A stretch of 30,590 bases of DNA from Myxococcales bacterium (GCA_020431405.1 JAGQIK010000117.1:1-30590), one strand, 5' to 3'. Positions 6,452 to 30,590 are shown, counted from the stretch's first letter. Notes: generated by a model not told the origin, from the sequence alone. Numbers and translations: made by a program.

Positions 6452-7843
6452 TTAGTTTCGGCGGGTTGCGGATCGGAGAGTGACCCCGAGGGCGAGGAGG
6501 AGCAGCAGCAGCGACGAAGTCGAGTTGGTCGAGCCTGGGGGGACGGCGCAGCCGCCGCTGGGCTCGTCGCTTGGCACGAGGCCGTCGGGGTTTCGTTGGC
6601 TGGCGGGGGTCTTGGGCACGCCGGCGGCGACGGGCGTGGGCGTCTGGGGCTCGAAGAGGTCTTTGAACTCGAAGTCCTTGGGCTCGGTCATGGTGCCGTC
6701 GTTGTCGATGGTGCCGACGAAGCGCAGCGTCATGTCGCCGCGCGCGCGGTAGGCCACCGACAGGGCGTGCGTCGGCGGCGAGAAGGCTTTGCCGCCGAGC
6801 AGCACGTCGAGGTGCTGCTGCATGGTGTGCGCGCCGCCCTCGGCGTAGAAGGCGTCGATGTACTCGCCCCACTCGGGCGCGCTTTTGCCGTCGGTCTCGA
6901 AGTTGGTGGTGATCAGCACCTCGCCGTCGTGAAACTCGGGCTGCGGTACGCGCTTCTTCGAGCAGCGCTGACCGGCGAGGCAGGTGATGACGCCGCCGTA
7001 GCCGTCGGGGGCGTACCAGTTGATGAAGCCGCCGGTGGCGATGGTGTAGCGGCGCAGCAGTTGGTAGACGAAGTCGAGCTGCCGCGCGAGGGGCACGCCG
7101 TCGACAGCGGTGAGCACCAGGCGGTTTGCGACCATGCGCGCCAGGTAACCGTTGCCCGGCTTGGAGTGCATGTCGGTGGCGAGGTCGTGCAGCGAGGCGA
7201 GCACGCCATGCTCGTTGACGCCGGTCAGCGACAGCACGTAGCCGGGCCACGCGACGTTGAGCCAGCGCACGGGCTCGCCGGCGGTCGCCGCGCGCGCGAT
7301 CAGCACGTGGTGTTTGACGGCGTCGCTCTTGAGCACCAGCGGCGTGTCGAGCCGGCGGCTGTGCAGCGCGCGCACGGGCGCTTTGACGCGCGAGCCCCAG
7401 CTCGAGTGCGAGTTGCAGCCGGGCGGGTAAAGCCAGTCGGCGATGGTGTTGATGATCTCGAGGTCGGTGACGGTGATGTCGGCGTCGGGCAGCACGTGCT
7501 TGACGCCGTCGACGATGCCGCGCAGCTCGTCGAGGATGCCGCGCGGCTCGAAGACGTACGTTTTGACGCGCTCGCGGCCGCGGTCGTAGACCTTGGCGAA
7601 GACGGTTCGCGCCTCCTCGACGGCGAACAGCACGTCGCGCGCGAGCAGGGCACCGTGGGCGAAGCCCATCTCGTAGTGCGTGCCCCACACCGAGAGGATC
7701 GTGTAGCCCACGCGGCTCTTCGTCAGCGACTGCTCGATGATGCGGCCGTTGACCTCGACCTCGGGCGCTGCGTGCGCTGTCGCCAGCGCGAACGTCACCA
7801 GCACGGCGGCGGCGAGCGCCGTCGTCAATCTTGTCTCTTTCAT
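6452..7843 (-). CDS. Secreted protein that is tentatively a peptidase C45 / acyl-CoA:6-APA acyltransferase-like Ntn-hydrolase, with a C-terminal MYXO-CTERM-like signal.
   Basis: The signal peptide is MKETRLTTALAAAVLVTFALATAHA. WGTHYEMGFAHGALLARDV resembles GTPFEIGYEHGSAAKAVI of isopenicillin-N acyltransferase (C45), and GCNSHS resembles its autocleavage site DGCTTA. The tail PSGGCAVPPGSTNSTSSLLLLLLALGVTLRSATRRN matches the MYXO-CTERM pattern. Confidence 0.6.
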   Translation of the reverse strand: MKETRLTTALAAAVLVTFALATAHAAPEVEVNGRIIEQSLTKSRVGYTILSVWGTHYEMGFAHGALLARDVLFAVEEARTVFAKVYDRGRERVKTYVFEPRGILDELRGIVDGVKHVLPDADITVTDLEIINTIADWLYPPGCNSHSSWGSRVKAPVRALHSRRLDTPLVLKSDAVKHHVLIARAATAGEPVRWLNVAWPGYVLSLTGVNEHGVLASLHDLATDMHSKPGNGYLARMVANRLVLTAVDGVPLARQLDFVYQLLRRYTIATGGFINWYAPDGYGGVITCLAGQRCSKKRVPQPEFHDGEVLITTNFETDGKSAPEWGEYIDAFYAEGGAHTMQQHLDVLLGGKAFSPPTHALSVAYRARGDMTLRFVGTIDNDGTMTEPKDFEFKDLFEPQTPTPVAAGVPKTPASQRNPDGLVPSDEPSGGCAVPPGSTNSTSSLLLLLLALGVTLRSATRRN

Positions 7844-15380: not shown

Positions 15381-16225
15381 TAGCGATCGTCGAGCGCGCG
15401 CATCAGGCGGTGCCGGTCGCGGCGGCTGGCGAACGGCGGCTCGCCGTCGCCCGCGCCGGCGGGTTGAAGCCCGCCATCGTCGGCCGCGTACCACTTGGGA
15501 AAGAACGACAGCTTCGTCGCGCGCTCGATCTCTTCGATGTCGTCGACCAAGTAGTCGTCGGGTGACTTGTTCTTCGGCGCGTCTTGCGGGATGCGGAAGG
15601 CGAAGACGTCGACGTTGCTCATGCGGTTCCACGGATAGCGGAACGGATCGGCCATCACGTAGAAGTACGCCTCGGGCAGCGGCACCTGGCTGCCGTTGGG
15701 GCGCTCGATGATCTCGGGGTCGTCGCCGAAGATCGGTCCAGCGATGGCCCAGACGTGGTCCTTGTCGGGGGTGTCCTCGATCTTGCGGATGGCGTCTTCG
15801 AGCTTGGCCCACACGCCGGTGTTGAGCGTGCCGCGCTGTGGGCTCATGTTCGACATCAGGAACGTCTCCATCTGCGCCAGGCGGCCGAACTGTTCATTGA
15901 TCGCCTGGTTGGGGACCATGTGACCGACGTGGTAGCCATCGCCGAAGGTCTCCGACCCGACGCGCAGTGCTTCATCGAGGCGCGCATCGTCGTAGTAGAG
16001 GTGCGGACGATCGTAGTCCACGGCGGCCTTGGCGTGCGCTACGCGGTAGGCCGCCCACGTCGGCTGCATGCGCTTGGGGCAGAACCCGACGGCGAAGCCA
16101 TGGTTGACGAGCACCACGACCGGGTTGTCCTTGTCGCCGTTGAGTGGTCGGCCTTGAAAGCAGTAGAGGTCGAGCAAGTAGGCCAGATGTTGGCTGCTCG
16201 GATGGACTGTCGTGAAGTCGGTCAT
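15380..16225 (-). CDS. DNA/RNA non-specific endonuclease of the Serratia NucA / EndoG family (a beta-beta-alpha-metal-finger nuclease), with no signal peptide.
   Basis: The catalytic His motif GYHVGHMVPN corresponds to DRGH. The metal-ligand Asn motif FLMSNMSPQ matches the EndoG motif TFYLSNVAPQ. The N-terminus is not hydrophobic. Its start overlaps the upstream gene's stop (ATGA at 16222-16225). Confidence 0.8.
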   Translation of the reverse strand: MTDFTTVHPSSQHLAYLLDLYCFQGRPLNGDKDNPVVVLVNHGFAVGFCPKRMQPTWAAYRVAHAKAAVDYDRPHLYYDDARLDEALRVGSETFGDGYHVGHMVPNQAINEQFGRLAQMETFLMSNMSPQRGTLNTGVWAKLEDAIRKIEDTPDKDHVWAIAGPIFGDDPEIIERPNGSQVPLPEAYFYVMADPFRYPWNRMSNVDVFAFRIPQDAPKNKSPDDYLVDDIEEIERATKLSFFPKWYAADDGGLQPAGAGDGEPPFASRRDRHRLMRALDDR

Positions 16226-17079
16226 GCTGCACCGCCGTTGCTCGCATCGTCGTGATCGTCATCGTCTCCGTCTTCGTCGCGCAGCGCGGCGAAAGGCGAG
16301 CCGGCGGCGAAGTAGCTCACGCGTTTGGTGCTCGGCAGCCCTTGCTTGTCGCCGCTGCCCGCGACGGCGAGCTCGCCGGCGTCGAGCTGGCGCAGCGCCT
16401 TGTAGTGGCCGTCTTCGTAGCGCAGCTGCACCGCTTGAAACGCGAAGACCAGCCGCGGATCGCCGCTGAACGTGAGCGCCGACTCGCCCGCCGAGCTCGC
16501 CTTGACGCCGACCTTGGCGCCCACCAGCTGCTTGATCTCGTCGACCTTGACGCCGACGTCGACGTTGCCTTCGTCCTTGGCGCTGACCTTGAGGTTGTTG
16601 CTCTTGAGCACGGTGGCGAGCACGTACAGCTCGTCCGCATCGAGCAGGCGCTTGGTGTTCTGCGCGTGCGGGTTGACCTCTGCCGTGGCGAGGAACTTGT
16701 CGAGGGCGATGATGCTGATCTGGTCCATACGCACGTCGTGAAATTCGAACGTCAGCGCCACCGCCTTGCTGTACTTGGCCTCGATGCCAGCGGTGCCGCC
16801 GCCGAGCGCCGCCAGCACGCCCTTGAGCAGCGACAGGCCGAGCGACAGCTCGAGCGAGCGCGTCTGCTTGCCGGCAAGCTGCGGCGTGGCGATGTCTGCT
16901 TCGACCTCGGGTATCGGCTCGGCGCCCGTGTTGAAGAGCTCGCCTAGCGCGCCGAGGCGGCGCAAGCTGCTGCCGCTTCGCTCGGCGAGCGTCAGCACCG
17001 GCAAGCGCTCGCGAGGCAGGCGCACCGCGGAGAAGCCCGAGTCGGCGAGCATGGTCAGCACGGGATCTTTGTTGCCCAT
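16222..17079 (-). CDS. Gasdermin-like pore-forming protein of 285 aa, putatively a bacterial gasdermin, with an acidic C-terminal tail.
   Basis: The protein is beta-rich and amphipathic. LYVLATVLKSNNLKVSAKDEG...ESALTFSGDPRLVFAFQAVQLRYED parallels the GSDMD N-terminal domain YVVTEVLQTQKEVEVT...IPSGSTLAFRVAQLVIDSD. The length fits bacterial gasdermins. The C-terminus DEDGDDDDHDDASNGGAA could be an inhibitory peptide. It is preceded by three caspase-like protease genes. Confidence 0.6.
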   Translation of the reverse strand: MGNKDPVLTMLADSGFSAVRLPRERLPVLTLAERSGSSLRRLGALGELFNTGAEPIPEVEADIATPQLAGKQTRSLELSLGLSLLKGVLAALGGGTAGIEAKYSKAVALTFEFHDVRMDQISIIALDKFLATAEVNPHAQNTKRLLDADELYVLATVLKSNNLKVSAKDEGNVDVGVKVDEIKQLVGAKVGVKASSAGESALTFSGDPRLVFAFQAVQLRYEDGHYKALRQLDAGELAVAGSGDKQGLPSTKRVSYFAAGSPFAALRDEDGDDDDHDDASNGGAA

Positions 17080-17113
17080 CTGTCTGTCTCCTCGTGCGCC
17101 GAAGCGGCGGCGG

Positions 17114-18490
17114 CTAGATCAACGTGGCGGCGGGATCGCCGTGAAGAACGAAGCTGGTGCGGTCGAAGGCGGTAAGCTTGGCGGTGGTCGCCTCGCGCGC
17201 GATCTTCTTGCGGTCGACGCCGGCGTCGCCCGACCAGCGGGTCAGCGCGTCGCGGCTCTGGCTGAGCAGCGCGCCCACGCCGACAGTGAACCCAGAAAGC
17301 GCACGCCCGATGGTGCTGCCGCTGTACAGCCCGTTGACCAGCGCGACGCGTACGTGATCAGCGAGCAGCTGCTGGTTGTCGATCAACGTCCAGTTGAAAG
17401 TTGGCTCGACGTGCCCGATGAACGCGCGCGCGGGGTGCGGCCCGCCGAGCAGCGCGCGCGCCAGCGGGCTCGAGCGCGCGCCGAGCGCGCCTACCGCGTC
17501 GAGCATCTCGCGAATGGGGCCATCGCTGAGCAGCGGCGCAAACACCGAGCCATCGTCGCTGCCGCCCGAGCAGCAGGCGTGGACGTACCAGATGGCCCCG
17601 CTGGCGGCGACGGCGGCGGCGACGGCCTGCGGATCGACGGCGGCGCCTCGCGTGTCCACCGGCGCACCGAGGCGCGCGCGCGCCTGCGCGCTGTCGAGCT
17701 TGCTCGTCAGACCGTGGCTGCTGCAGACCACGAGCGCTGGCTTTTCGCGCGACAGCACGTCGAGCAGCGCGTCGACGTTGGCGTCTTTGCCTTCGAGAAG
17801 GCGCGCGCCAGCGCGCGTGTCGGCGTCGGCGGCGAGCGCGCGGTGCACCGGCATCGCCACCGCGGGCTTCATCAGGTGCGTGATGTCGTCGGGGTCGTTG
17901 TCGTGGGTGACCGCGAAGACCAGCGACTGCGCGCGCTGTGCGGGCGCGGGCGGCTGCGCTGCGAGCAGCGCGTCGACGTAGCGGCCGAGGGCGTCGTCGT
18001 CGTCGTCGTCGTCGAGATCGAGGCGACCGACGTAGAGCCCCGAGAGGCCGGCCTGATATTGCAGCGCCCAGGGCAGCGCCTGCGGGCTGCCGAACAACAG
18101 CAGGTACGTCGGGATGCGTCCTGCGCCGGCGCCGCGCGGCGTGCCGACCAGCGGGCGCGCCTGGCCGTCGACCCACAGCCTTCGCGGGTCGCCGCGGTAG
18201 CGCAGCACCTTGGCGCCCGGCCGCGCCGCGAACAGCCGCTGCAACGCCGCAGGTGCGCCATCGAGCCGCGCGCGCGCGCTGTCGTCGAGCGCGTCGTCGT
18301 CGGGCAGCACGACGCCCCAGCCGACGTCGGGATGTGCAGGCGAGTTGGGATCGGGCGCGCCAGGCCAGGCCATCAGCGATTGCTCGCGTGCGGCGACACG
18401 CGCGTTGGCGAAGGCCAGCGCGTTGGGCGTCTCGTCGAGCAGCGCGCCCTCGCCGGCGACGTAGGCGTCGATGCGCAGCGCTTCGCTCAA
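17114..18490 (-). CDS. Caspase-like protease (peptidase C14 / CHAT-type His-Cys dyad) of 458 aa.
   Basis: The His motif PALVVCSSHGL aligns with caspase FVCVLLSHG. The Cys motif IWYVHACCSGG aligns with QACRG. There is a poly-Asp run (DLDDDDDDDA). Its start overlaps the upstream stop (ATGA at 18487-18490). Confidence 0.7.
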   Translation of the reverse strand: MSEALRIDAYVAGEGALLDETPNALAFANARVAAREQSLMAWPGAPDPNSPAHPDVGWGVVLPDDDALDDSARARLDGAPAALQRLFAARPGAKVLRYRGDPRRLWVDGQARPLVGTPRGAGAGRIPTYLLLFGSPQALPWALQYQAGLSGLYVGRLDLDDDDDDDALGRYVDALLAAQPPAPAQRAQSLVFAVTHDNDPDDITHLMKPAVAMPVHRALAADADTRAGARLLEGKDANVDALLDVLSREKPALVVCSSHGLTSKLDSAQARARLGAPVDTRGAAVDPQAVAAAVAASGAIWYVHACCSGGSDDGSVFAPLLSDGPIREMLDAVGALGARSSPLARALLGGPHPARAFIGHVEPTFNWTLIDNQQLLADHVRVALVNGLYSGSTIGRALSGFTVGVGALLSQSRDALTRWSGDAGVDRKKIAREATTAKLTAFDRTSFVLHGDPAATLI

Positions 18491-19797
18491 AGCTGACCTC
18501 GCAGCGTGGCGAGCGTGGCCTCCGCCGCAGCGCGCTTGTCGGGCGGCAACGCGGGCAGCGACGCCTCGAGCACCTGGATAGCGACGAGCAGATCGCCGCT
18601 GGCGCCAACGGCTTGCAGGCTATCGCGGCGCTCGAACAGCACGGGCGCGACCCAGCGCTTGTCGATGGGCGCGTGCTGCGGGCGCGGGTCGGGCACCAAG
18701 CGCTGTCGCGGCGAGAGCATCAGCTGCGGCCAGCTGAGCGTCTTGACGTCTTCTGGCTTCTGCAGCGCTTCGAGCAGTCCTGCGTAGAAGGCCCGCGAGA
18801 ACGTGCTCAGGTCGCCGAAGTCCATGATGTCGCTCATGCCGATCGCGGCGTGAAAGCGCTTCTGCACCAGCGTGCGTCCCATCGAGCGGCTGGTATCGCC
18901 CGGGCGCGCGCCGCGACAGCAGCCGAGCACCGCGACGAGCGGGTCGAACGCGGGCTTGGCGCGGGCCACGGCGTCGATGATGTCGTCGGGGTAGATGTAG
19001 ATCGAGCCGGGGGCGTTGAGCTCGGCGTCGATCACGTCGGAGACGATCAGATAGGGCGAGCGCGTGGCCTCACCGTGGCAGAAGACGTGAAGCACGTGCG
19101 GGCGAGACGCAGCGAGCGCCTCGAGGAGCGCGGGTCCGCCGCCGCGCTTGATCTCCTCGACGCGCAGGCGCGGCGTGCCGTTGGCCGCGGGCGCGCTGGC
19201 GGCGGGATGCGCGGCGGCCTCCTGCAGCACCTCCTTGTCGGCGGCCAGTAGGTGCAGCGTCGCTTCGCGCCCGTCAGCGAGCACCGTGTCGCGCAGCGCG
19301 CGCCACTCGGGTGTCGCTTTCCAACCTTGCGCGCCGAGCACGGCGAATACGCGCAAGCCCTCGCTGATGTCCACGGCGAAGCGCTCGTCGTCTCCGCGCC
19401 GCGCTACGTCGCGAACGACGCGGCTTACCGGCCAGCCGTCGAGCGAGATGAAGCGCGGTGGGTCGCCGGCGTTGGCACTGGCGCAGAGGCACTCCCAGGG
19501 CAGCGAGTCGACGTCGTTGCCGGCGAGGTCGAGCACCACCGAGCCGCCGTCGACCAGCAGCTTGACCACGCCGTTGTGCACGCCCGGGTTGTCCTTGACG
19601 AGCCCGTCGAACAGGCGCTTGCCCAGCGCCTCGGTGTTGGCGTCGTCGAAGGCGGCGCCGAGGAAGGCCTGCACCTCGGCATCGCTGCTGTCGAGCTCGA
19701 GCGTCGATTCGTGACCCCAGCCGGGGATGTTCTCGGGCCGGTCGAGCTCGACCTTGGTGCCGTCAGGCCGTTCGCGGATGCGCAGCACGAGCTTCAT
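18487..19797 (-). CDS. CHAT / caspase-like protease of 436 aa, starting at MKLVLRIRE.
   Basis: GGAGG lies 6 nt upstream of the ATG at 19795-19797. The His motif HVLHVFCHGEA aligns with CHAT HFAGHG. The Cys motif LVAVLGCCRGA aligns with LVVLSAC. The longer ORF in the track (to 19968) has an Arg/Pro-rich leader that looks like an artefact. Confidence 0.7.
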   Translation of the reverse strand: MKLVLRIRERPDGTKVELDRPENIPGWGHESTLELDSSDAEVQAFLGAAFDDANTEALGKRLFDGLVKDNPGVHNGVVKLLVDGGSVVLDLAGNDVDSLPWECLCASANAGDPPRFISLDGWPVSRVVRDVARRGDDERFAVDISEGLRVFAVLGAQGWKATPEWRALRDTVLADGREATLHLLAADKEVLQEAAAHPAASAPAANGTPRLRVEEIKRGGGPALLEALAASRPHVLHVFCHGEATRSPYLIVSDVIDAELNAPGSIYIYPDDIIDAVARAKPAFDPLVAVLGCCRGARPGDTSRSMGRTLVQKRFHAAIGMSDIMDFGDLSTFSRAFYAGLLEALQKPEDVKTLSWPQLMLSPRQRLVPDPRPQHAPIDKRWVAPVLFERRDSLQAVGASGDLLVAIQVLEASLPALPPDKRAAAEATLATLRGQL

Positions 19798-21104
19798 GCG
19801 TCGCCTCCGTCGCGCCTGCGCAGCGCGTCGACGTCGATCTCGGGCGGCGCGTCGCTGCTCTCGAGGAGCTTGGTGAGGTACTCGAGGGCAGCGCGTTGGC
19901 CGCGGCTGGTGCCGGCCGCGCTGTCGAGGCGCGCGGCGGTCTGGCGCACGAAGGCTTCGGCGCGCCACAGCTCGGGTTGCGCGTCGACGGTGCTCTCGAC
20001 GCGCGCCAACATCGCGTCGAGCTCGCTGCCGCTGCGCGCGTTTTCGAGCGCCTCGGGCGACGAGTAGACGCGCACACCGGGCGCGCCGTGAAGATCCTGC
20101 AGGCTGAACGGCTGGTGCTGCTCGAAGGGCAGCAGCGCGGCGAACAGCGCGTCGCCGACGTCACCGCCGACCTGCTCGCGCGCGTCGAGCACCGCGACCG
20201 TGCCGGCGCGCGAGCGGGCGATCGTGTCAGCCAGGCGCAAGAGCCCGCTGCGCGAGTAGCAGTCGTGCGCCATCACGACGGCCAGCGCGCTGCAGCCCAT
20301 GTAGTCGAGAGCCGCGATGAGCTGTTGGGATCCGACGTAGCGGCTCGCGCCGACGCGCTCGAGGTGCGGCGACTCGGCGACGGCGAGCACGCCGCTGCCC
20401 TGTGTGTACACGCCGTGGCCGACCACGGCGAAGAGATCTACCGGCCCATCGATACTAGTCACCATCCAGCGCAGCCACGGATCCCGGATGCGCCGCGTTG
20501 GCGACGCCGCCGCGCTGTCCGTTAGATCAGCCGGCGGGTGATGCACGCTGACGTTGGGCGGCACCATCTGCTCGACCTGATCGACGAGCGGCGCGTCGGT
20601 GAACACGTGTGTCTGCACGCCGGCGCCGAAGAGCGCGTCGGCGCCGCGCGCCAGCTGCGCACAGGTGTCGGGCACGCTGTAGCGCATCTCGTCGTCGGGC
20701 AGGCTGGCCCAGATCGCGGCGCAGGGCTGACGCCGCCGCGGCGCGTGCGCCACGTCGAGCCCGAGGCGCACCACGGTGCGCGCGAGCTGCGGCGCGAGCC
20801 AGCGCTCCCACGGCAGCAGCGGCAAACGGCTGCTCGCCGGCGCCACCCACAGCCAGACGCCAGGCTCGTTGGCGAAACGATGCGCGTGCGCGGCGACGCT
20901 CTGTAGCCCGGCGGGAAGCGCGTCCGGCGGATCGATCACTTCGGTGGCGGCGAAGCGGATCTCCGAGGGCAGCCCGATTTCGCTGACAGGGCAGCTGCCG
21001 GCGATCTCTCTCGCGTCGCCTTCGACCAGCGCGAGCTCGACGGTGTCGTCAGGCCCGAATCCAACCTCGAGCCGCGGCCCGCTCATCTGTGGCGGCGCTC
21101 TCAT
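19794..21104 (-). CDS. Third caspase/CHAT-like paralogue of about 436 aa, possibly degenerate or regulatory.
   Basis: GGGGAG lies 5 nt upstream of the ATG at 21102-21104. The His-Gly motif LFAVVGHGVYT and the downstream Cys motif LAVVMAHDCYS echo the dyad. Its stop overlaps the next gene's start (ATGA at 19794-19797). Confidence 0.55.
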   Translation of the reverse strand: MRAPPQMSGPRLEVGFGPDDTVELALVEGDAREIAGSCPVSEIGLPSEIRFAATEVIDPPDALPAGLQSVAAHAHRFANEPGVWLWVAPASSRLPLLPWERWLAPQLARTVVRLGLDVAHAPRRRQPCAAIWASLPDDEMRYSVPDTCAQLARGADALFGAGVQTHVFTDAPLVDQVEQMVPPNVSVHHPPADLTDSAAASPTRRIRDPWLRWMVTSIDGPVDLFAVVGHGVYTQGSGVLAVAESPHLERVGASRYVGSQQLIAALDYMGCSALAVVMAHDCYSRSGLLRLADTIARSRAGTVAVLDAREQVGGDVGDALFAALLPFEQHQPFSLQDLHGAPGVRVYSSPEALENARSGSELDAMLARVESTVDAQPELWRAEAFVRQTAARLDSAAGTSRGQRAALEYLTKLLESSDAPPEIDVDALRRRDGGDA

Positions 21105-21257
21105 CTGTGCTCCCCGCGCGCGACCGCGCGCTCCACCCGCTCCGTCCCGTACGCCCATGCGAACACAGATACGCATGATTTGCGGCTTGCGGAGGTTGTT
21201 ATGTACCAGAAAAAGGCGCGGCTGTGTTGCGCGACACGTAGCGCGGCGCGCGTGCGG

Positions 21258-23138: not shown

Positions 23139-27113
<3,975 letters not shown>

Positions 27114-27393
27114 GGGCTCTTCGGGCGGCGCGAAGCGTGTTCGGCCGGCGGCCGTATCTTACCAACGACCTGCGACTTTTCGCGACAACCTTCTCTGGTC
27201 GCGCGGTGGTCGTCCGCGAACGTCCCGTGTGACTTCGTGATGGTGCCACGGCCTGGGGGCTAGCGCTCCGATCTGGGAGGGCACGCCCCAGATCGCGTCG
27301 GCCCGCTGGCCGGTTATCTCGTCCAACTCGCGGGGAATATGAAGTTCCTTCTGATTGGAAACCCGTGGCATGTGGGTTGCTCTTCCGTGGGAC

Positions 27394-28749
27394 ATGCGTC
27401 TCCCGAGCATCGTCCTCGCCGCACTCCTCGCCGTGCCGGCGTCTGGCTGCGTCGAGACCGACGGCGAGCCCATCGAGAAGAACGAAGGCGCGCAGCAGTC
27501 GTGCCCCGGCGGCGTACCGCGTCGCGACCCGGTCAAGCCCGAGGTCATCCAGGCCTTCTATCCGTGCTGCAGCGGGCGCGCGCACCTGATCCCCGAGTTC
27601 CTCGTGCCGTCCGACTTCCGCGACATGCTCGACAAGGGCCCCGACGGCACGTCGACGCTGTGCGTGCCCGACGAGTTCGCGGTCAACCCCGACTTCACGC
27701 CCAAGACCTGCCGCTCGCTGTTCGGCCAGCCGGGCGCGTGCATCTCCGAGTGCGTGCCGCAGGTGCGCGACGCGCCGACGGCGCTGCCGCAGGCCGACTG
27801 CGCCCCCGGCGAGAAGTGCGCGCCTTGCGTCGACCCGCGCACCAACCAAGAGACCGGCGCCTGCAAGATGGGTCAGATGGCGTGCGCGCCGCCAGCGAGC
27901 AACACGCCCGGCACCGACGACTGCCGCGAGTGGGACCCCGAGCCGAGCCTCGCCGATCAGTACCCGGTCTGCTGTCCCGGCGCGCGCTGCGTGCCCAAGG
28001 ACCTGGTCGAGGATTCGCTCGCCAAGGACCTCGCGCCGTGTGAAGGCGGCTACTGCACGCCCGAGAAGTTCCTCGTGCGCGGCGGCAAGTTCAAGCCCGC
28101 CACCTGCCGCGCCATCGGCAACGTCGAGGGGCGCTGCCTGTCGACCTGCATCAAGTCGATCAAGGAGCAGGCCGATCAGCTCGAGCAGGGCAGCTGCGAC
28201 CAAGGCGAGGTCTGCGCGCCGTGCTACGACCCGCGCACCGGCATGGGCACCGGCGCCTGCACCGCTGGGCTGTGCGACGCGCCGAAAGAGCCGGCCAAGA
28301 CCTTCACCCAGTGCGGCAAAGAGAAGGACCAGGCCTGGTGCGTGCCCGAGTCGCTGGTGCCGGCCAAGGACCGCTGCAACTTCGACACGCAGGGCTGTCA
28401 GGCGGCGCCGGTGTGCGAGCCGGGCACGATCTGCGTGCCCAAGGCGATCGTCGACGCGGGCCCGACGTTCAAGCCGCGCCAGTGCACCAACGGGCTGCTC
28501 GGCTTCCTGGCGCTCTTCCAGAAGCTGTCGGGCGGCATCATCCAGGCCATCGCGGCGATGAAGGACTTCAAAGAGGGGCGCTGCCTCTCGGCCTGCCTGC
28601 CGCAGGTGCGCAAGGACGCCGCGCTGCTCGGCCAGAACGGCTGCGCCGACGGCGAGATCTGCGTGCCGTGCTTCGATCCGCGGCAAGCGGCCAACGGCAA
28701 GATCCCGACCGGGGCGTGCGACGAGAATCGCCGCTGCCCGGGGACCTAG
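27394..28749 (+). CDS. Cys-rich secreted lipoprotein built from three repeated modules of about 55 aa. The start could alternatively be 27355 or 27370.
   Basis: MRLPSIVLAALLAVPASGC is a signal peptide with a lipobox. Three modules follow of the form C(R/S)..G..G.C.S.C......L.Q..C..GE.C.PC.DPRT....GAC. Confidence 0.65.
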   Translation: MRLPSIVLAALLAVPASGCVETDGEPIEKNEGAQQSCPGGVPRRDPVKPEVIQAFYPCCSGRAHLIPEFLVPSDFRDMLDKGPDGTSTLCVPDEFAVNPDFTPKTCRSLFGQPGACISECVPQVRDAPTALPQADCAPGEKCAPCVDPRTNQETGACKMGQMACAPPASNTPGTDDCREWDPEPSLADQYPVCCPGARCVPKDLVEDSLAKDLAPCEGGYCTPEKFLVRGGKFKPATCRAIGNVEGRCLSTCIKSIKEQADQLEQGSCDQGEVCAPCYDPRTGMGTGACTAGLCDAPKEPAKTFTQCGKEKDQAWCVPESLVPAKDRCNFDTQGCQAAPVCEPGTICVPKAIVDAGPTFKPRQCTNGLLGFLALFQKLSGGIIQAIAAMKDFKEGRCLSACLPQVRKDAALLGQNGCADGEICVPCFDPRQAANGKIPTGACDENRRCPGT

Positions 28750-28761
28750 GGACGGCCGACG

Positions 28762-30590
28762 TTGATCACCCGCTTCAGCGCGGCGCTCGCGCCGCTCGTG
28801 CTGCTCGCGCTCGCGCCGTCGTCGGCGCGCGCTGGCGGCATGGAGGTCGGTGACACCGGCGCCGAGGCGCTCGGACGCGGCGGCGCGTTCACGGCCAAAG
28901 CCGACAACCCGACGGCGGTCAACTACAACCCCGCCGGCTTCGCCAAGCTGCGCGGCCACCACGCGGCCATCAGCGCCAACATCATCTACTCCGACTACAC
29001 GTTCCAGCGCCTCGGCGGCTTCGACGGGCAGACGCCCTATCCGACCATCGCCAGCGAGACGCCGCTGTTCGCCGCGCCGATGCACCTGATGGCGAGCACC
29101 GACTTCGGCTACTTCAAGCGCGTGACGTTCGGCTTCGGCATCTACATGCCCGCCGCCGCGACGCGCTCGTATCCGCGCGAGCTCAACGTCGGCGGCGCCA
29201 ACGTGCCGTCGCCGGCGCGCTTCGACTTCCTCTCGATGCAGGGCATCATGCTCTTTCCCACGGCGGCGCTGGCGATCCGCCTCACCGACTGGCTCGACGT
29301 CGGCGTGACGTTTCAGACCGTCATCACCAAGGCGACGATCAAGATGCTCGCCACGGTGGCGGCCGCCTGCGAGACCCCCGAGGACGCGTCGTGCGACGTC
29401 GACATCGACCTCGAGGTCAAAGACATGTTCTCGCCCACCGGCTCGCTCGGCTTTCTGATGCGCCTCGGCGAGAGCGTCGAGGTCGGCGGCATGCTGCGGC
29501 TGCCGTCGTCGTCGGAGCTCAAGGGCACCGCCAACGTCGGTTTCGGCCCTGGCATCTCGCGCCTCGAAAACAGCCTGCAGCACAAGATGCTCGATCCGAT
29601 GGCGCCGCAGGTCACGCTGACCAACGACTACCCGTGGATGATGCGGCTCGGCGGTCGCATCATCTTTCGCGACAAGCGCGGCGAGGAAGCCGGCGACATC
29701 GAGCTCGACCTGATCTACGAGCGCTGGTCGGCGGTCAGCAAGCGCACCGTGCTGATCGAGGGGCAGTCGCTGGGCAAGCCGATGCCGCCGTCGGAGGTCG
29801 ACTACGCGCTCAAGGACACCTTCAGCGTGCGCCTCGGCGGCGCCTATCGCTTCAGGCTCGCCAGCGACATGTTCCTCACGCTGCGCGCCGGCGTGTTCGG
29901 CGAGACGGCGACGACGTCGATCTCCGATACGCGCCTCGGCGTGCTGTCGCCGGCGCGCGTCGCGTTCACCGGCGGCGTCGGCCTCAAGTGGGGCTTCATC
30001 AGCGTCGACGTGGCGTTCGCGCAGTTCTTCTTCCCCAAGCGCGTGGTCGGGCGCAGCACGGTCACGGCGCAGGACTTCGGCGGCGGCGTCGGGCCGACGG
30101 TGGGCAACGGCGTCTACGCCGCCAAGCTGACGGCGCTGGCGCTGCAGGTCAGCTTCGCCTTCGGCCAGCCGAAGCAGGCGCTGCCGCGCCGCACGCCGCC
30201 CAAGCCCGACGACTACGACGGCATGGGCCTCTACCTCTCGAAGAACGAGCGCAAGCGCAAGCGCCGGCGCCGTCGCACGCGCCAGGCGCTCGCCTCGGCC
30301 GACGGGCTCGTGTTCTCGGGCACGCGCAGCTACGCCACGAAGACAGCCGCCGCGCACGAGAGCCGCACCGAGCGCCTGCAGCGCGCGCGGCGTCAGGGGC
30401 GCACGTCGTCGAGGCGCGCGCCGTCACGACGCGGCGTGCGCGATGTCGACTTCAACTTCTCGGCCGAGAAGGTCACGCGGCGCGACAGCAGCTCGCGCAG
30501 CGGCGGTGACAGCTACAGCTTCGAGCCCACCACCGTGCGGCGCTCGAGCCGCTCGCGTCGGGTGCGCCGCCGCGTGCGCCGCTACCGCCG
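28762..30590 (+). CDS. FadL/TodX (OmpP1) family outer-membrane transport protein, partial. It carries a long basic C-terminal extension that runs off the window.
   Basis: A TTG start lies 12 nt after the upstream stop. The signal peptide is ITRFSAALAPLVLLALAPSSARA. ALGRGGAFTAKADNPTAVNYNPAG matches the FadL N-terminus [24 protein letters not shown]. The barrel-terminal strand LALQVSFAF is followed by an Arg/Ser-rich tail. The frame is open to the window end and is absent from the ORF track because it has no stop. Confidence 0.7.
   Translation, partial: MITRFSAALAPLVLLALAPSSARAGGMEVGDTGAEALGRGGAFTAKADNPTAVNYNPAGFAKLRGHHAAISANIIYSDYTFQRLGGFDGQTPYPTIASETPLFAAPMHLMASTDFGYFKRVTFGFGIYMPAAATRSYPRELNVGGANVPSPARFDFLSMQGIMLFPTAALAIRLTDWLDVGVTFQTVITKATIKMLATVAAACETPEDASCDVDIDLEVKDMFSPTGSLGFLMRLGESVEVGGMLRLPSSSELKGTANVGFGPGISRLENSLQHKMLDPMAPQVTLTNDYPWMMRLGGRIIFRDKRGEEAGDIELDLIYERWSAVSKRTVLIEGQSLGKPMPPSEVDYALKDTFSVRLGGAYRFRLASDMFLTLRAGVFGETATTSISDTRLGVLSPARVAFTGGVGLKWGFISVDVAFAQFFFPKRVVGRSTVTAQDFGGGVGPTVGNGVYAAKLTALALQVSFAFGQPKQALPRRTPPKPDDYDGMGLYLSKNERKRKRRRRRTRQALASADGLVFSGTRSYATKTAAAHESRTERLQRARRQGRTSSRRAPSRRGVRDVDFNFSAEKVTRRDSSSRSGGDSYSFEPTTVRRSSRSRRVRRRVRRYR

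Follow-up and report, generated by a model that had tools for sequence, protein, structure and literature searches.

A gasdermin and a nuclease beside a conserved trio of predicted clan CD protease-like proteins in a Myxococcales bacterium

Bacterial gasdermins (bGSDMs) are kept inactive by a short C-terminal peptide of their own, and CHAT or caspase-like proteases encoded next to them bring about their activation (Johnson et al. 2021/2022). Here we describe a gasdermin gene in a stretch of 30,590 nucleotides (nt) from a Myxococcales bacterium (GCA_020431405.1 JAGQIK010000117.1:1-30590, approximately 70% GC, below called the window), where it lies together with a nuclease gene downstream of three protease-like genes, here named A, B and C; Z is the name used for a DUF900 α/β-hydrolase gene of related loci. 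According to Table S1 of Johnson et al., CHAT is the commonest partner of bGSDMs (23/59 proteases), and two proteases are found in 7 and three in 4 of 50 loci, the latter including Nostoc with three CHAT proteases and Actinoplanes with one CHAT and two caspases. A first-pass annotation of the window had regarded one protease as typical of bGSDM loci, which is roughly right but passes over these cases. The window resembles the described operons, among them the Runella bGSDM with Roc-COR-CHAT, in having a gasdermin beside clan CD proteases. However, sensor domains of the repeat or NACHT type are missing from its proteases, two of which (A and C) go unrecognized by Pfam. The three together make up a conserved module with a DUF900 hydrolase, and not a gasdermin, as its usual partner, and the nuclease is translationally coupled to the gasdermin.

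The CARD-type systems of Lysobacter are multi-protease operons in which gasdermin is interchangeable with a phospholipase or an endonuclease while the upstream module is kept (Wein et al., PMC10312443). Their operons combine CARD-like domains and an NLR-like ATPase with a pair of trypsin-like proteases, all three of which are missing from the window. The core there consists of a pseudo-CHAT, a CHAT and a gingipain-like protein, and no trypsin, NACHT or ATPase domain was found in the operon or the window. In the type III-B CRISPR/CBASS system of Haliangium, SAVED-CHAT cleaves and activates PCaspase (Steens et al., bioRxiv 2023.06.23.546230). The likeness is that two clan CD proteases, one of them a CHAT, are found in one myxobacterial locus. 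In contrast to Haliangium, the window has no SAVED or other cyclic-nucleotide sensor, its second protease is gingipain-like instead of C14, and it has an extra pseudo-protease; neither a cyclase nor Cas genes were found in the window. In the caspase-nuclease (canu) system a clan CD protease activates a co-encoded pro-nuclease, and an accessory partner is bound to the protease (PMC12799240). The canu nucleases are of the metallo-β-lactamase fold with gating insertions and the protease is MALT1-like, whereas the nuclease of the window is a ββα-Me Endonuclease_NS protein in which no gate was identified.

With moderate confidence, we read the locus as a protease-gated gasdermin operon that originated by an effector swap onto a conserved A-B-C module, because Z is absent throughout the 30-kb window and no gasdermin was found in the 165 other loci searched with tblastn and phmmer. 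A swap of this kind matches the replacement of gasdermin by a phospholipase or endonuclease known from the CARD-type systems (PMC10312443). Judged by gene content, the window would be a derived form of the module that no longer has the hydrolase and has gained a gasdermin-nuclease pair downstream of C. Multi-protease gasdermin loci and effector swapping are already known. What is new here is the resolution of the trio into a pseudo-CHAT, a CHAT and a gingipain-like protein, its recognition as a conserved and widespread module, and the DUF900 hydrolase as its usual partner. No description of the cassette was found in the literature searched (CHAT with DUF900, gingipain or lipase), an absence that does not prove novelty.

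A conserved cassette and the effectors in the window

Relatives of C were collected from species-representative genomes (209 relatives, 80 loci fetched) and from metagenomes (a further 241 relatives, another 80 loci). Orthologues of B and A were harvested from the loci flanking the C homologues; a word-index search returned only B itself and, for A, two weak relatives. All-against-all BLASTP indicated that the genes upstream of C in the relatives are orthologues of window B and A, with identities of 38% and 45% in L001, a Z-A-B-C locus that is the nearest relative of the window (38-50% identity; at most 45% in the metagenomes). Across the loci, tblastn detected a tightly packed Z-A-B-C cassette. 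Architecture was tallied in the 93 loci whose available sequence extends 5.8 kb or more upstream of C: 84 of them were Z-A-B-C, four had A-B-C alone, two had Peptidase_C1, with or without Endonuclease_NS, in the place of Z beside A-B-C, two were Z-C only and one had C alone. The length criterion leaves a third Z-C locus outside the tally (L074), and Z-C pairs without A and B were thus seen in L074, L126 and L153, while a Z-B pair was seen in none of the loci. The tight gene coupling emphasized in the first-pass annotation extends to the relatives, as the median A-B and B-C spacing is -4 nt (72 and 76 loci, respectively), and overlapping junctions are therefore a family trait.

According to the record labels, the hosts represent at least eight phyla, and include Actinomycetota, Pseudomonadota (alpha, beta and gamma), Acidobacteriota, Chloroflexota, Gemmatimonadota, Desulfobacterota, Verrucomicrobiota and Rhodothermales, with Myxococcota added by the window itself. 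Counted by A, the family amounts to approximately 700 clusters at 50% identity (699 representatives), and counted by C it is present in at least 209 species genomes. The Z protein is approximately 445 amino acids long and has an invariant GHSxG motif, Asp and His; Pfam DUF900 is matched by 45 of 60 members. Z is a serine α/β-hydrolase and could plausibly be an effector of the lipase or esterase type. Apart from the DUF900 matches of Z, there is no representation of A, C, Z or the whole cassette in Pfam or PADLOC v2. The Pfam content of the cassette neighbours is heterogeneous housekeeping genes without a conserved fifth component.

Some loci deviate from the common arrangement. A papain-family peptidase occupies the Z slot in two alphaproteobacterial loci (L032:578-3447 and L063:6061-7107; Pfam Peptidase_C1 2.6e-12 and 6e-11), the first of which additionally has an Endonuclease_NS domain (1.9e-37), fused to a further C-terminal domain, beside A-B-C. 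On two related contigs (L075:13845-16133 and L148:10791-12998) a fusion of a trypsin-like peptidase and Endonuclease_NS (Pfam Trypsin_2 1.2e-18, Endonuclease_NS 8.2e-35) lies approximately 2.5 kb downstream of a Z-less A-B-C, with one opposite-strand gene between. The second-closest relative of window C (P0004, 45% identity) occurs without A, B and Z (L084:9001-11450) and is followed by a gene with no Pfam match that reaches the contig end.

By its profile matches, the 285-amino-acid protein encoded downstream of C is a bona fide bacterial gasdermin. It is recognized by PADLOC bGSDM (3.5e-69) and by NCBIfam prok_gasdermin (186.5 bits against a cut-off of 100, 4.8e-55), and its best matches among PDB sequences, 7n51 (2.1e-37) and 8sl0, are around 1e-37 and cover residues 4-240. 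Beyond the 7n51 alignment, past residue ~240, follows a tail of approximately 45 amino acids that is acidic (DEDGDDDDHDD). As in bGSDM systems generally, a protease gene is adjacent: 34 nt separate the gasdermin from C, which is preceded by the overlapping genes B and A. The genome, metagenome and viral contig scans yielded no relatives of this gasdermin. The nuclease matches Pfam Endonuclease_NS (8.8e-25, residues 37-246), its active-site motifs GHM and SNMSPQ (His, Asn) are intact in the translation, and a signal peptide is not evident. It is a probable second effector beside the gasdermin.

The three protease-like proteins

A, B and C are all of the caspase/CHAT-type (clan CD) fold. The first-pass annotation had described them as tandem caspase/CHAT paralogues, which holds for the fold and, at the profile level only, for A and B (hhalign 97%, E 5.8e-11). 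It does not hold for the trio: pairwise BLASTP gave nothing significant, the best result being B against C around the His motif (E 0.07), and we rule out recent tandem paralogy or local duplication on this ground. Kinship of C to A or B was likewise not supported at the profile level (hhalign E 0.02 and 0.17, probability below 3%). Searches of the three window proteins against Pfam, NCBIfam, PADLOC and PDB sequences gave no match except a weak one of B to PADLOC SAVED_CHAT (E 0.001, positions 136-286, the protease region), and the Peptidase_C14 (caspase/metacaspase) profile was not matched. The translations contain all the motifs pointed out earlier (GHG/AHDC in A, CHGEA/GCC in B, SSHG/HACC in C) as well as the stretch of seven Asp in C.

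Protein B is predicted to be a divergent, active CHAT protease. Pfam CHAT (PF12770) is matched by 72 of 73 B orthologues (best 1.8e-16), the window copy being the sole exception with no Pfam match at E<=1. Residues H237, H241, G242 and C294 are invariant in all 73 sequences. The B family profile matches the SAVED-CHAT structure 8tl0 (E 8.7e-9), which is the sole PDB sequence match of the family. A protein identical to window B (P0001) is also found on a 1.3-kb contig in ENA.

Protein A, modelled from an alignment of sequences from the representative search, is homologous to the CHAT fold. At the position of the catalytic Cys, 43 of 68 orthologues have Pro and the window has Ala, and only 37 of 68 keep a His in the His column. 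The Cys of the AHDC motif (C282) lies three columns past the catalytic column and is not conserved, with Asn in 41/68 orthologues. Because of the Pro/Ala in the Cys column and the variable His column, A is a CHAT-derived pseudo-protease and not a CHAT enzyme, as the first-pass annotation had suspected.

Protein C is predicted to be an active, gingipain-like clan CD cysteine protease. All 48 sequences compared have S258-H259-G260 and A305-C306-C307, and in the AlphaFold 2 model (predicted local distance difference test, pLDDT, 88.6; predicted template modelling score, pTM, 0.89) these motifs come directly after the strands 251-257 and 300-304. The model has the two-subdomain catalytic fold of gingipains, with His and Cys after adjacent β-strands, and its structurally nearest proteins are gingipains, neither CHAT proteases nor caspases of C14. 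Compared to RgpB and Kgp of Porphyromonas (MEROPS C25), with which it shares 13-14% identity, C gives no match to Pfam Peptidase_C25, or to any other profile of Pfam and NCBIfam, and its family profile finds nothing significant among PDB sequences. It also differs from them in lacking a signal-like hydrophobic N-terminus, as seen in the sequence, and, according to Pfam, the prodomain, the Ig-like domain and the type IX secretion C-terminal domain; instead, its C-terminal part is modelled as a helical bundle (residues ~361-445). C is presumably cytoplasmic. Its 265 relatives in the protein database are all labelled hypothetical, and no Pfam domain is present in the 120 homologues listed.

In the first-pass annotation the idea of a protease cascade was to fail if the dyads did not align to catalytic positions and the N-terminal regions were non-protease domains. 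For B and C the opposite was found, as invariant His-Gly and Cys directly after β-strands form the canonical arrangement, which bears out the earlier view that both dyads are intact, and the N-terminal regions lie within the protease fold. The anticipated failure does apply to A, which cannot be an active proteolytic step since its dyad fails to align to the catalytic positions. The poly-Asp run of C, singled out earlier as unusual, is a lineage-specific insertion: against 47 homologues, four residues are added in the loop RLDL-(D/E)xxGL that joins strand 153-157 to helix 165-176, and a role as a functional feature of the family was rejected on the alignment.

Layout of the operon and its surroundings

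Five consecutive minus-strand genes were picked out among many spurious open reading frames (ORFs) of the window by a filter on GC content at third and second codon positions (GC3/GC2), and all five ORFs are intact (Table 1). The first three had been annotated as consecutive genes of 436-458 amino acids with overlapping stop and start codons, and coordinates, deposited proteins and junctions agree with this; the operon reaches one gene further than had been described, to the Endonuclease_NS nuclease. The deposited proteins P0122 (A), P0001 (B) and P0002 (C) have 100% identity and coverage and the same lengths, and the locus tags KC503_08805 and KC503_08795 are found on deposited proteins of the trio. 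The A/B junction reads gcATGAag (4-nt overlap, GGAGG upstream), the B/C junction cTTGAgc (4-nt overlap, GAGG upstream) and the gasdermin/nuclease junction gcATGAcc, where the nuclease start overlaps the gasdermin stop by 4 nt. On the minus strand across the five genes, including the spacer between C and the gasdermin, there was neither a promoter-like nor a terminator-like site. No sigma-70 consensus was found in the intergenic region upstream of A, and the promoter is thus placed there by position only.

Table 1. Features of the operon and other large reading frames, in positions of the window
Feature	Position	Strand	Description
Region upstream of A	21105..21257	minus	Intergenic, presumed operon promoter; GGGGAG 5 nt before the A start codon
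Gene A	21104..19794	minus	436 amino acids; CHAT-like pseudo-protease without catalytic Cys
Gene B	19797..18487	minus	436 amino acids; divergent CHAT protease, predicted active
B His241-Gly242	19072..19077		Invariant residues of B
B Cys294	18916..18918		Invariant residue of B
Gene C	18490..17114	minus	458 amino acids; predicted active cysteine protease (clan CD), gingipain-like, family unnamed
Poly-Asp run	17993..18013	minus	C residues 160-166; lineage-specific loop insertion
C Ser258-His259-Gly260	17711..17719		Invariant residues of C
C Cys306-Cys307	17570..17575		Invariant residues of C
C-gasdermin spacer	17080..17113	minus	34 nt; GAGGAGA, resembling a ribosome-binding site
Gasdermin	17079..16222	minus	285 amino acids; bacterial gasdermin, pore-forming effector
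Nuclease	16225..15380	minus	281 amino acids; DNA/RNA non-specific endonuclease, Endonuclease_NS
ORF	13743-15353	plus	Large, coding-like, no Pfam match
Major vault protein homologue	9458-12124	plus	888 amino acids
ORF	27091-30357	minus	Large, coding-like, no Pfam match
ORF	6452-7843	minus	Large, coding-like, no Pfam match

The coding composition of A, B and C (GC3 0.86-0.89, GC2 ~0.5), together with the homologues that each has elsewhere, indicates that they are real genes and not chance ORFs. GC3 has the same range in all five operon genes, compared to 0.92-0.95 in the flanks (TauE, oxidoreductase, TPR protein, major vault protein and glycosidase genes), and this difference in composition is consistent with a joint horizontal acquisition of the five genes as one block. 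The flanking genes of the window encode Hsp70, DnaJ, PilZ, TetR, the major vault protein homologue, a glycosidase, TauE, a GFO/IDH/MocA oxidoreductase and a large TPR protein, and beyond the operon no further protease or defence gene was recognized in the 30 kb.

The major vault protein homologue matches Pfam MVP_shoulder (7.2e-23), Vault_3 (2.1e-7) and Vault_4 (2.1e-4). Vault proteins are chiefly eukaryotic, and a full-length homologue in a Myxococcales metagenome-assembled genome is noteworthy in itself. Of the three large ORFs without a Pfam match, the one at 13743-15353 is convergent with the nuclease gene, at a gap of 27 nt.

A possible mechanism and its alternatives

In the operon as we read it, the gasdermin and probably also the Endonuclease_NS nuclease would be effectors grafted onto the three-protein clan CD module. 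A would form a pair with B, its distant paralogue, and take on a regulatory or sensing role, in the way of pseudo-protease partners elsewhere. Phage infection, or else another signal of cell damage, would most likely be the trigger that frees the activity of B, and B would activate C or license it within a complex. C, as the effector-proximal protease, would then cut off the C-terminal inhibitory tail of the gasdermin, and the N-terminal domain would form membrane pores. The nuclease would degrade nucleic acid, either after processing of its own or once the cell is committed to death. We infer the trigger, the order of action, the cleavage sites and the protease that cuts the gasdermin, and the order of A/B, then C, then effector is put forward only tentatively. 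The effector-proximal protease is probably C: it is favoured as the executioner because Z-C pairs occur without A and B, with no Z-B pair, and because C adjoins the gasdermin, both of which are circumstantial.

Several observations speak against a protease-gated gasdermin operon of this kind. The association with gasdermin is a single instance in approximately 166 sampled loci, and having been seen once, the juxtaposition could be recent and possibly non-functional. One protease may suffice, since the nearest characterized gasdermin (7n51, Vitiosangium) has only one CHAT beside it in Table S1 of Johnson et al. Within its family, window B diverges the most; it misses Pfam CHAT and has Leu and Gly in place of the near-invariant Trp287 and Asn292. 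The nuclease has no obvious inhibitory insertion. The neighbours of the cassette are ordinary housekeeping genes, and only 5 of 106 match PADLOC at 1e-5, so there is no defence-island signal for an immune role, although this is a weak test, made on the nearest genes as called by a rough GC3-based procedure. Neither sequence nor fold searches detected the cassette on viral contigs.

It is possible that the proteases act in parallel without a cascade. B and C would then share a signal or a complex and each cut a different effector, or they would be redundant, and A would be a scaffold. Such an arrangement would suit the window, where two predicted-active proteases face two candidate effectors, and L032, where A-B-C is accompanied by two accessory proteins (Peptidase_C1 and nuclease), as well as the known bGSDM systems, which run on a single protease that cuts the gasdermin directly. 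Still, approximately 90% of the loci offer the two predicted-active proteases a single accessory protein, Z, and Z-C pairs were seen without B, but no Z-B pair; we consider parallel action unlikely.

Fixed stoichiometry, which the translational coupling across the family would fit, could also mean that A, B and C form an obligate hetero-oligomer in which one active site processes the effectors and the other subunit with a dyad is a sensor, a decoy substrate or an allosteric partner, without sequential proteolysis. That His and Cys are invariant in both B (73 sequences) and C (48 sequences) argues for catalytic use of both, and C occurs without A and B in some loci, so that we find the hetero-oligomer quite unlikely, even though A is a pseudo-enzyme paralogue of B and CanA and CanB of the caspase-nuclease system form a soluble effector-activating complex (PMC12799240).

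The trigger could be endogenous and the function other than antiviral, for example developmental or social cell death, kin discrimination or stress lysis in soil bacteria of complex lifestyle (myxobacteria, actinomycetes, Chloroflexota). According to the record labels, most hosts come from lineages of soil and sediment, of which many are filamentous or social, and the window itself is from a Myxococcales metagenome-assembled genome; also, no enrichment of defence islands was seen around the nearest genes of the cassette, and no viral copy was found. Against this stand the characterized bGSDM systems, which defend against phage, and the patchy distribution among phyla with varied insertion sites, which is typical of mobile accessory or defence modules. 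We regard a non-antiviral role, too, as quite unlikely.

A chance placement of the gasdermin-nuclease pair beside a Z-less A-B-C, with the gasdermin not a substrate or the locus decaying, would agree with the one such locus in approximately 166, the four other A-B-C loci without a recognizable accessory gene and the 34-nt C-gasdermin junction as the only non-overlapping one, but it is very unlikely given the shared strand, the spacer with its ribosome-binding site and no terminator-like site on that strand, the five intact ORFs of the same GC3, the need of gasdermins for a protease where none other is nearby, and the recurrence of the Endonuclease_NS association (L032, beside A-B-C).

A wider interpretation, which we regard as rather doubtful, is that Z-A-B-C is an undescribed, widespread cell-death or immune system based on three tiers of clan CD proteins. 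A dead CHAT would regulate, like cFLIP, an initiator CHAT; this would switch on a gingipain-like executioner, and the executioner would turn a zymogen effector into its active form. The effector would usually be the lipase-like DUF900 hydrolase, occasionally a papain-like peptidase or nuclease, and in the window the gasdermin. If true, the gasdermin variant in the window would be a natural experiment that reveals the role of the whole family, and gasdermin loci published with a 'single CHAT' may contain further protease partners that escape Pfam. In Table S1 of Johnson et al., the gene numbers of the gasdermin and of the sole annotated CHAT differ by 2-3 in five Chloroflexi bGSDM loci (Chloroflexus, Oscillochloris, Chloroploca, Viridilinea), and the unannotated genes between could be A- or C-like.

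Even if the juxtaposition with the gasdermin were accidental, Z-A-B-C would still be an uncharacterized and widespread operon. If the reading of a protease-gated gasdermin operon is true, a cassette of hundreds of soil and sediment bacteria would gain a function, protease-gated cell death. Annotation counts of gasdermin-adjacent proteases would be too low, since gingipain-like and pseudo-CHAT partners escape domain searches. The locus, being compact and independent of CRISPR and cyclic nucleotides, would lend itself to the study of a bacterial initiator-executioner hierarchy with a pseudo-protease regulator, and in formal terms nothing so far would come closer to the caspase-8/cFLIP-to-gasdermin logic.

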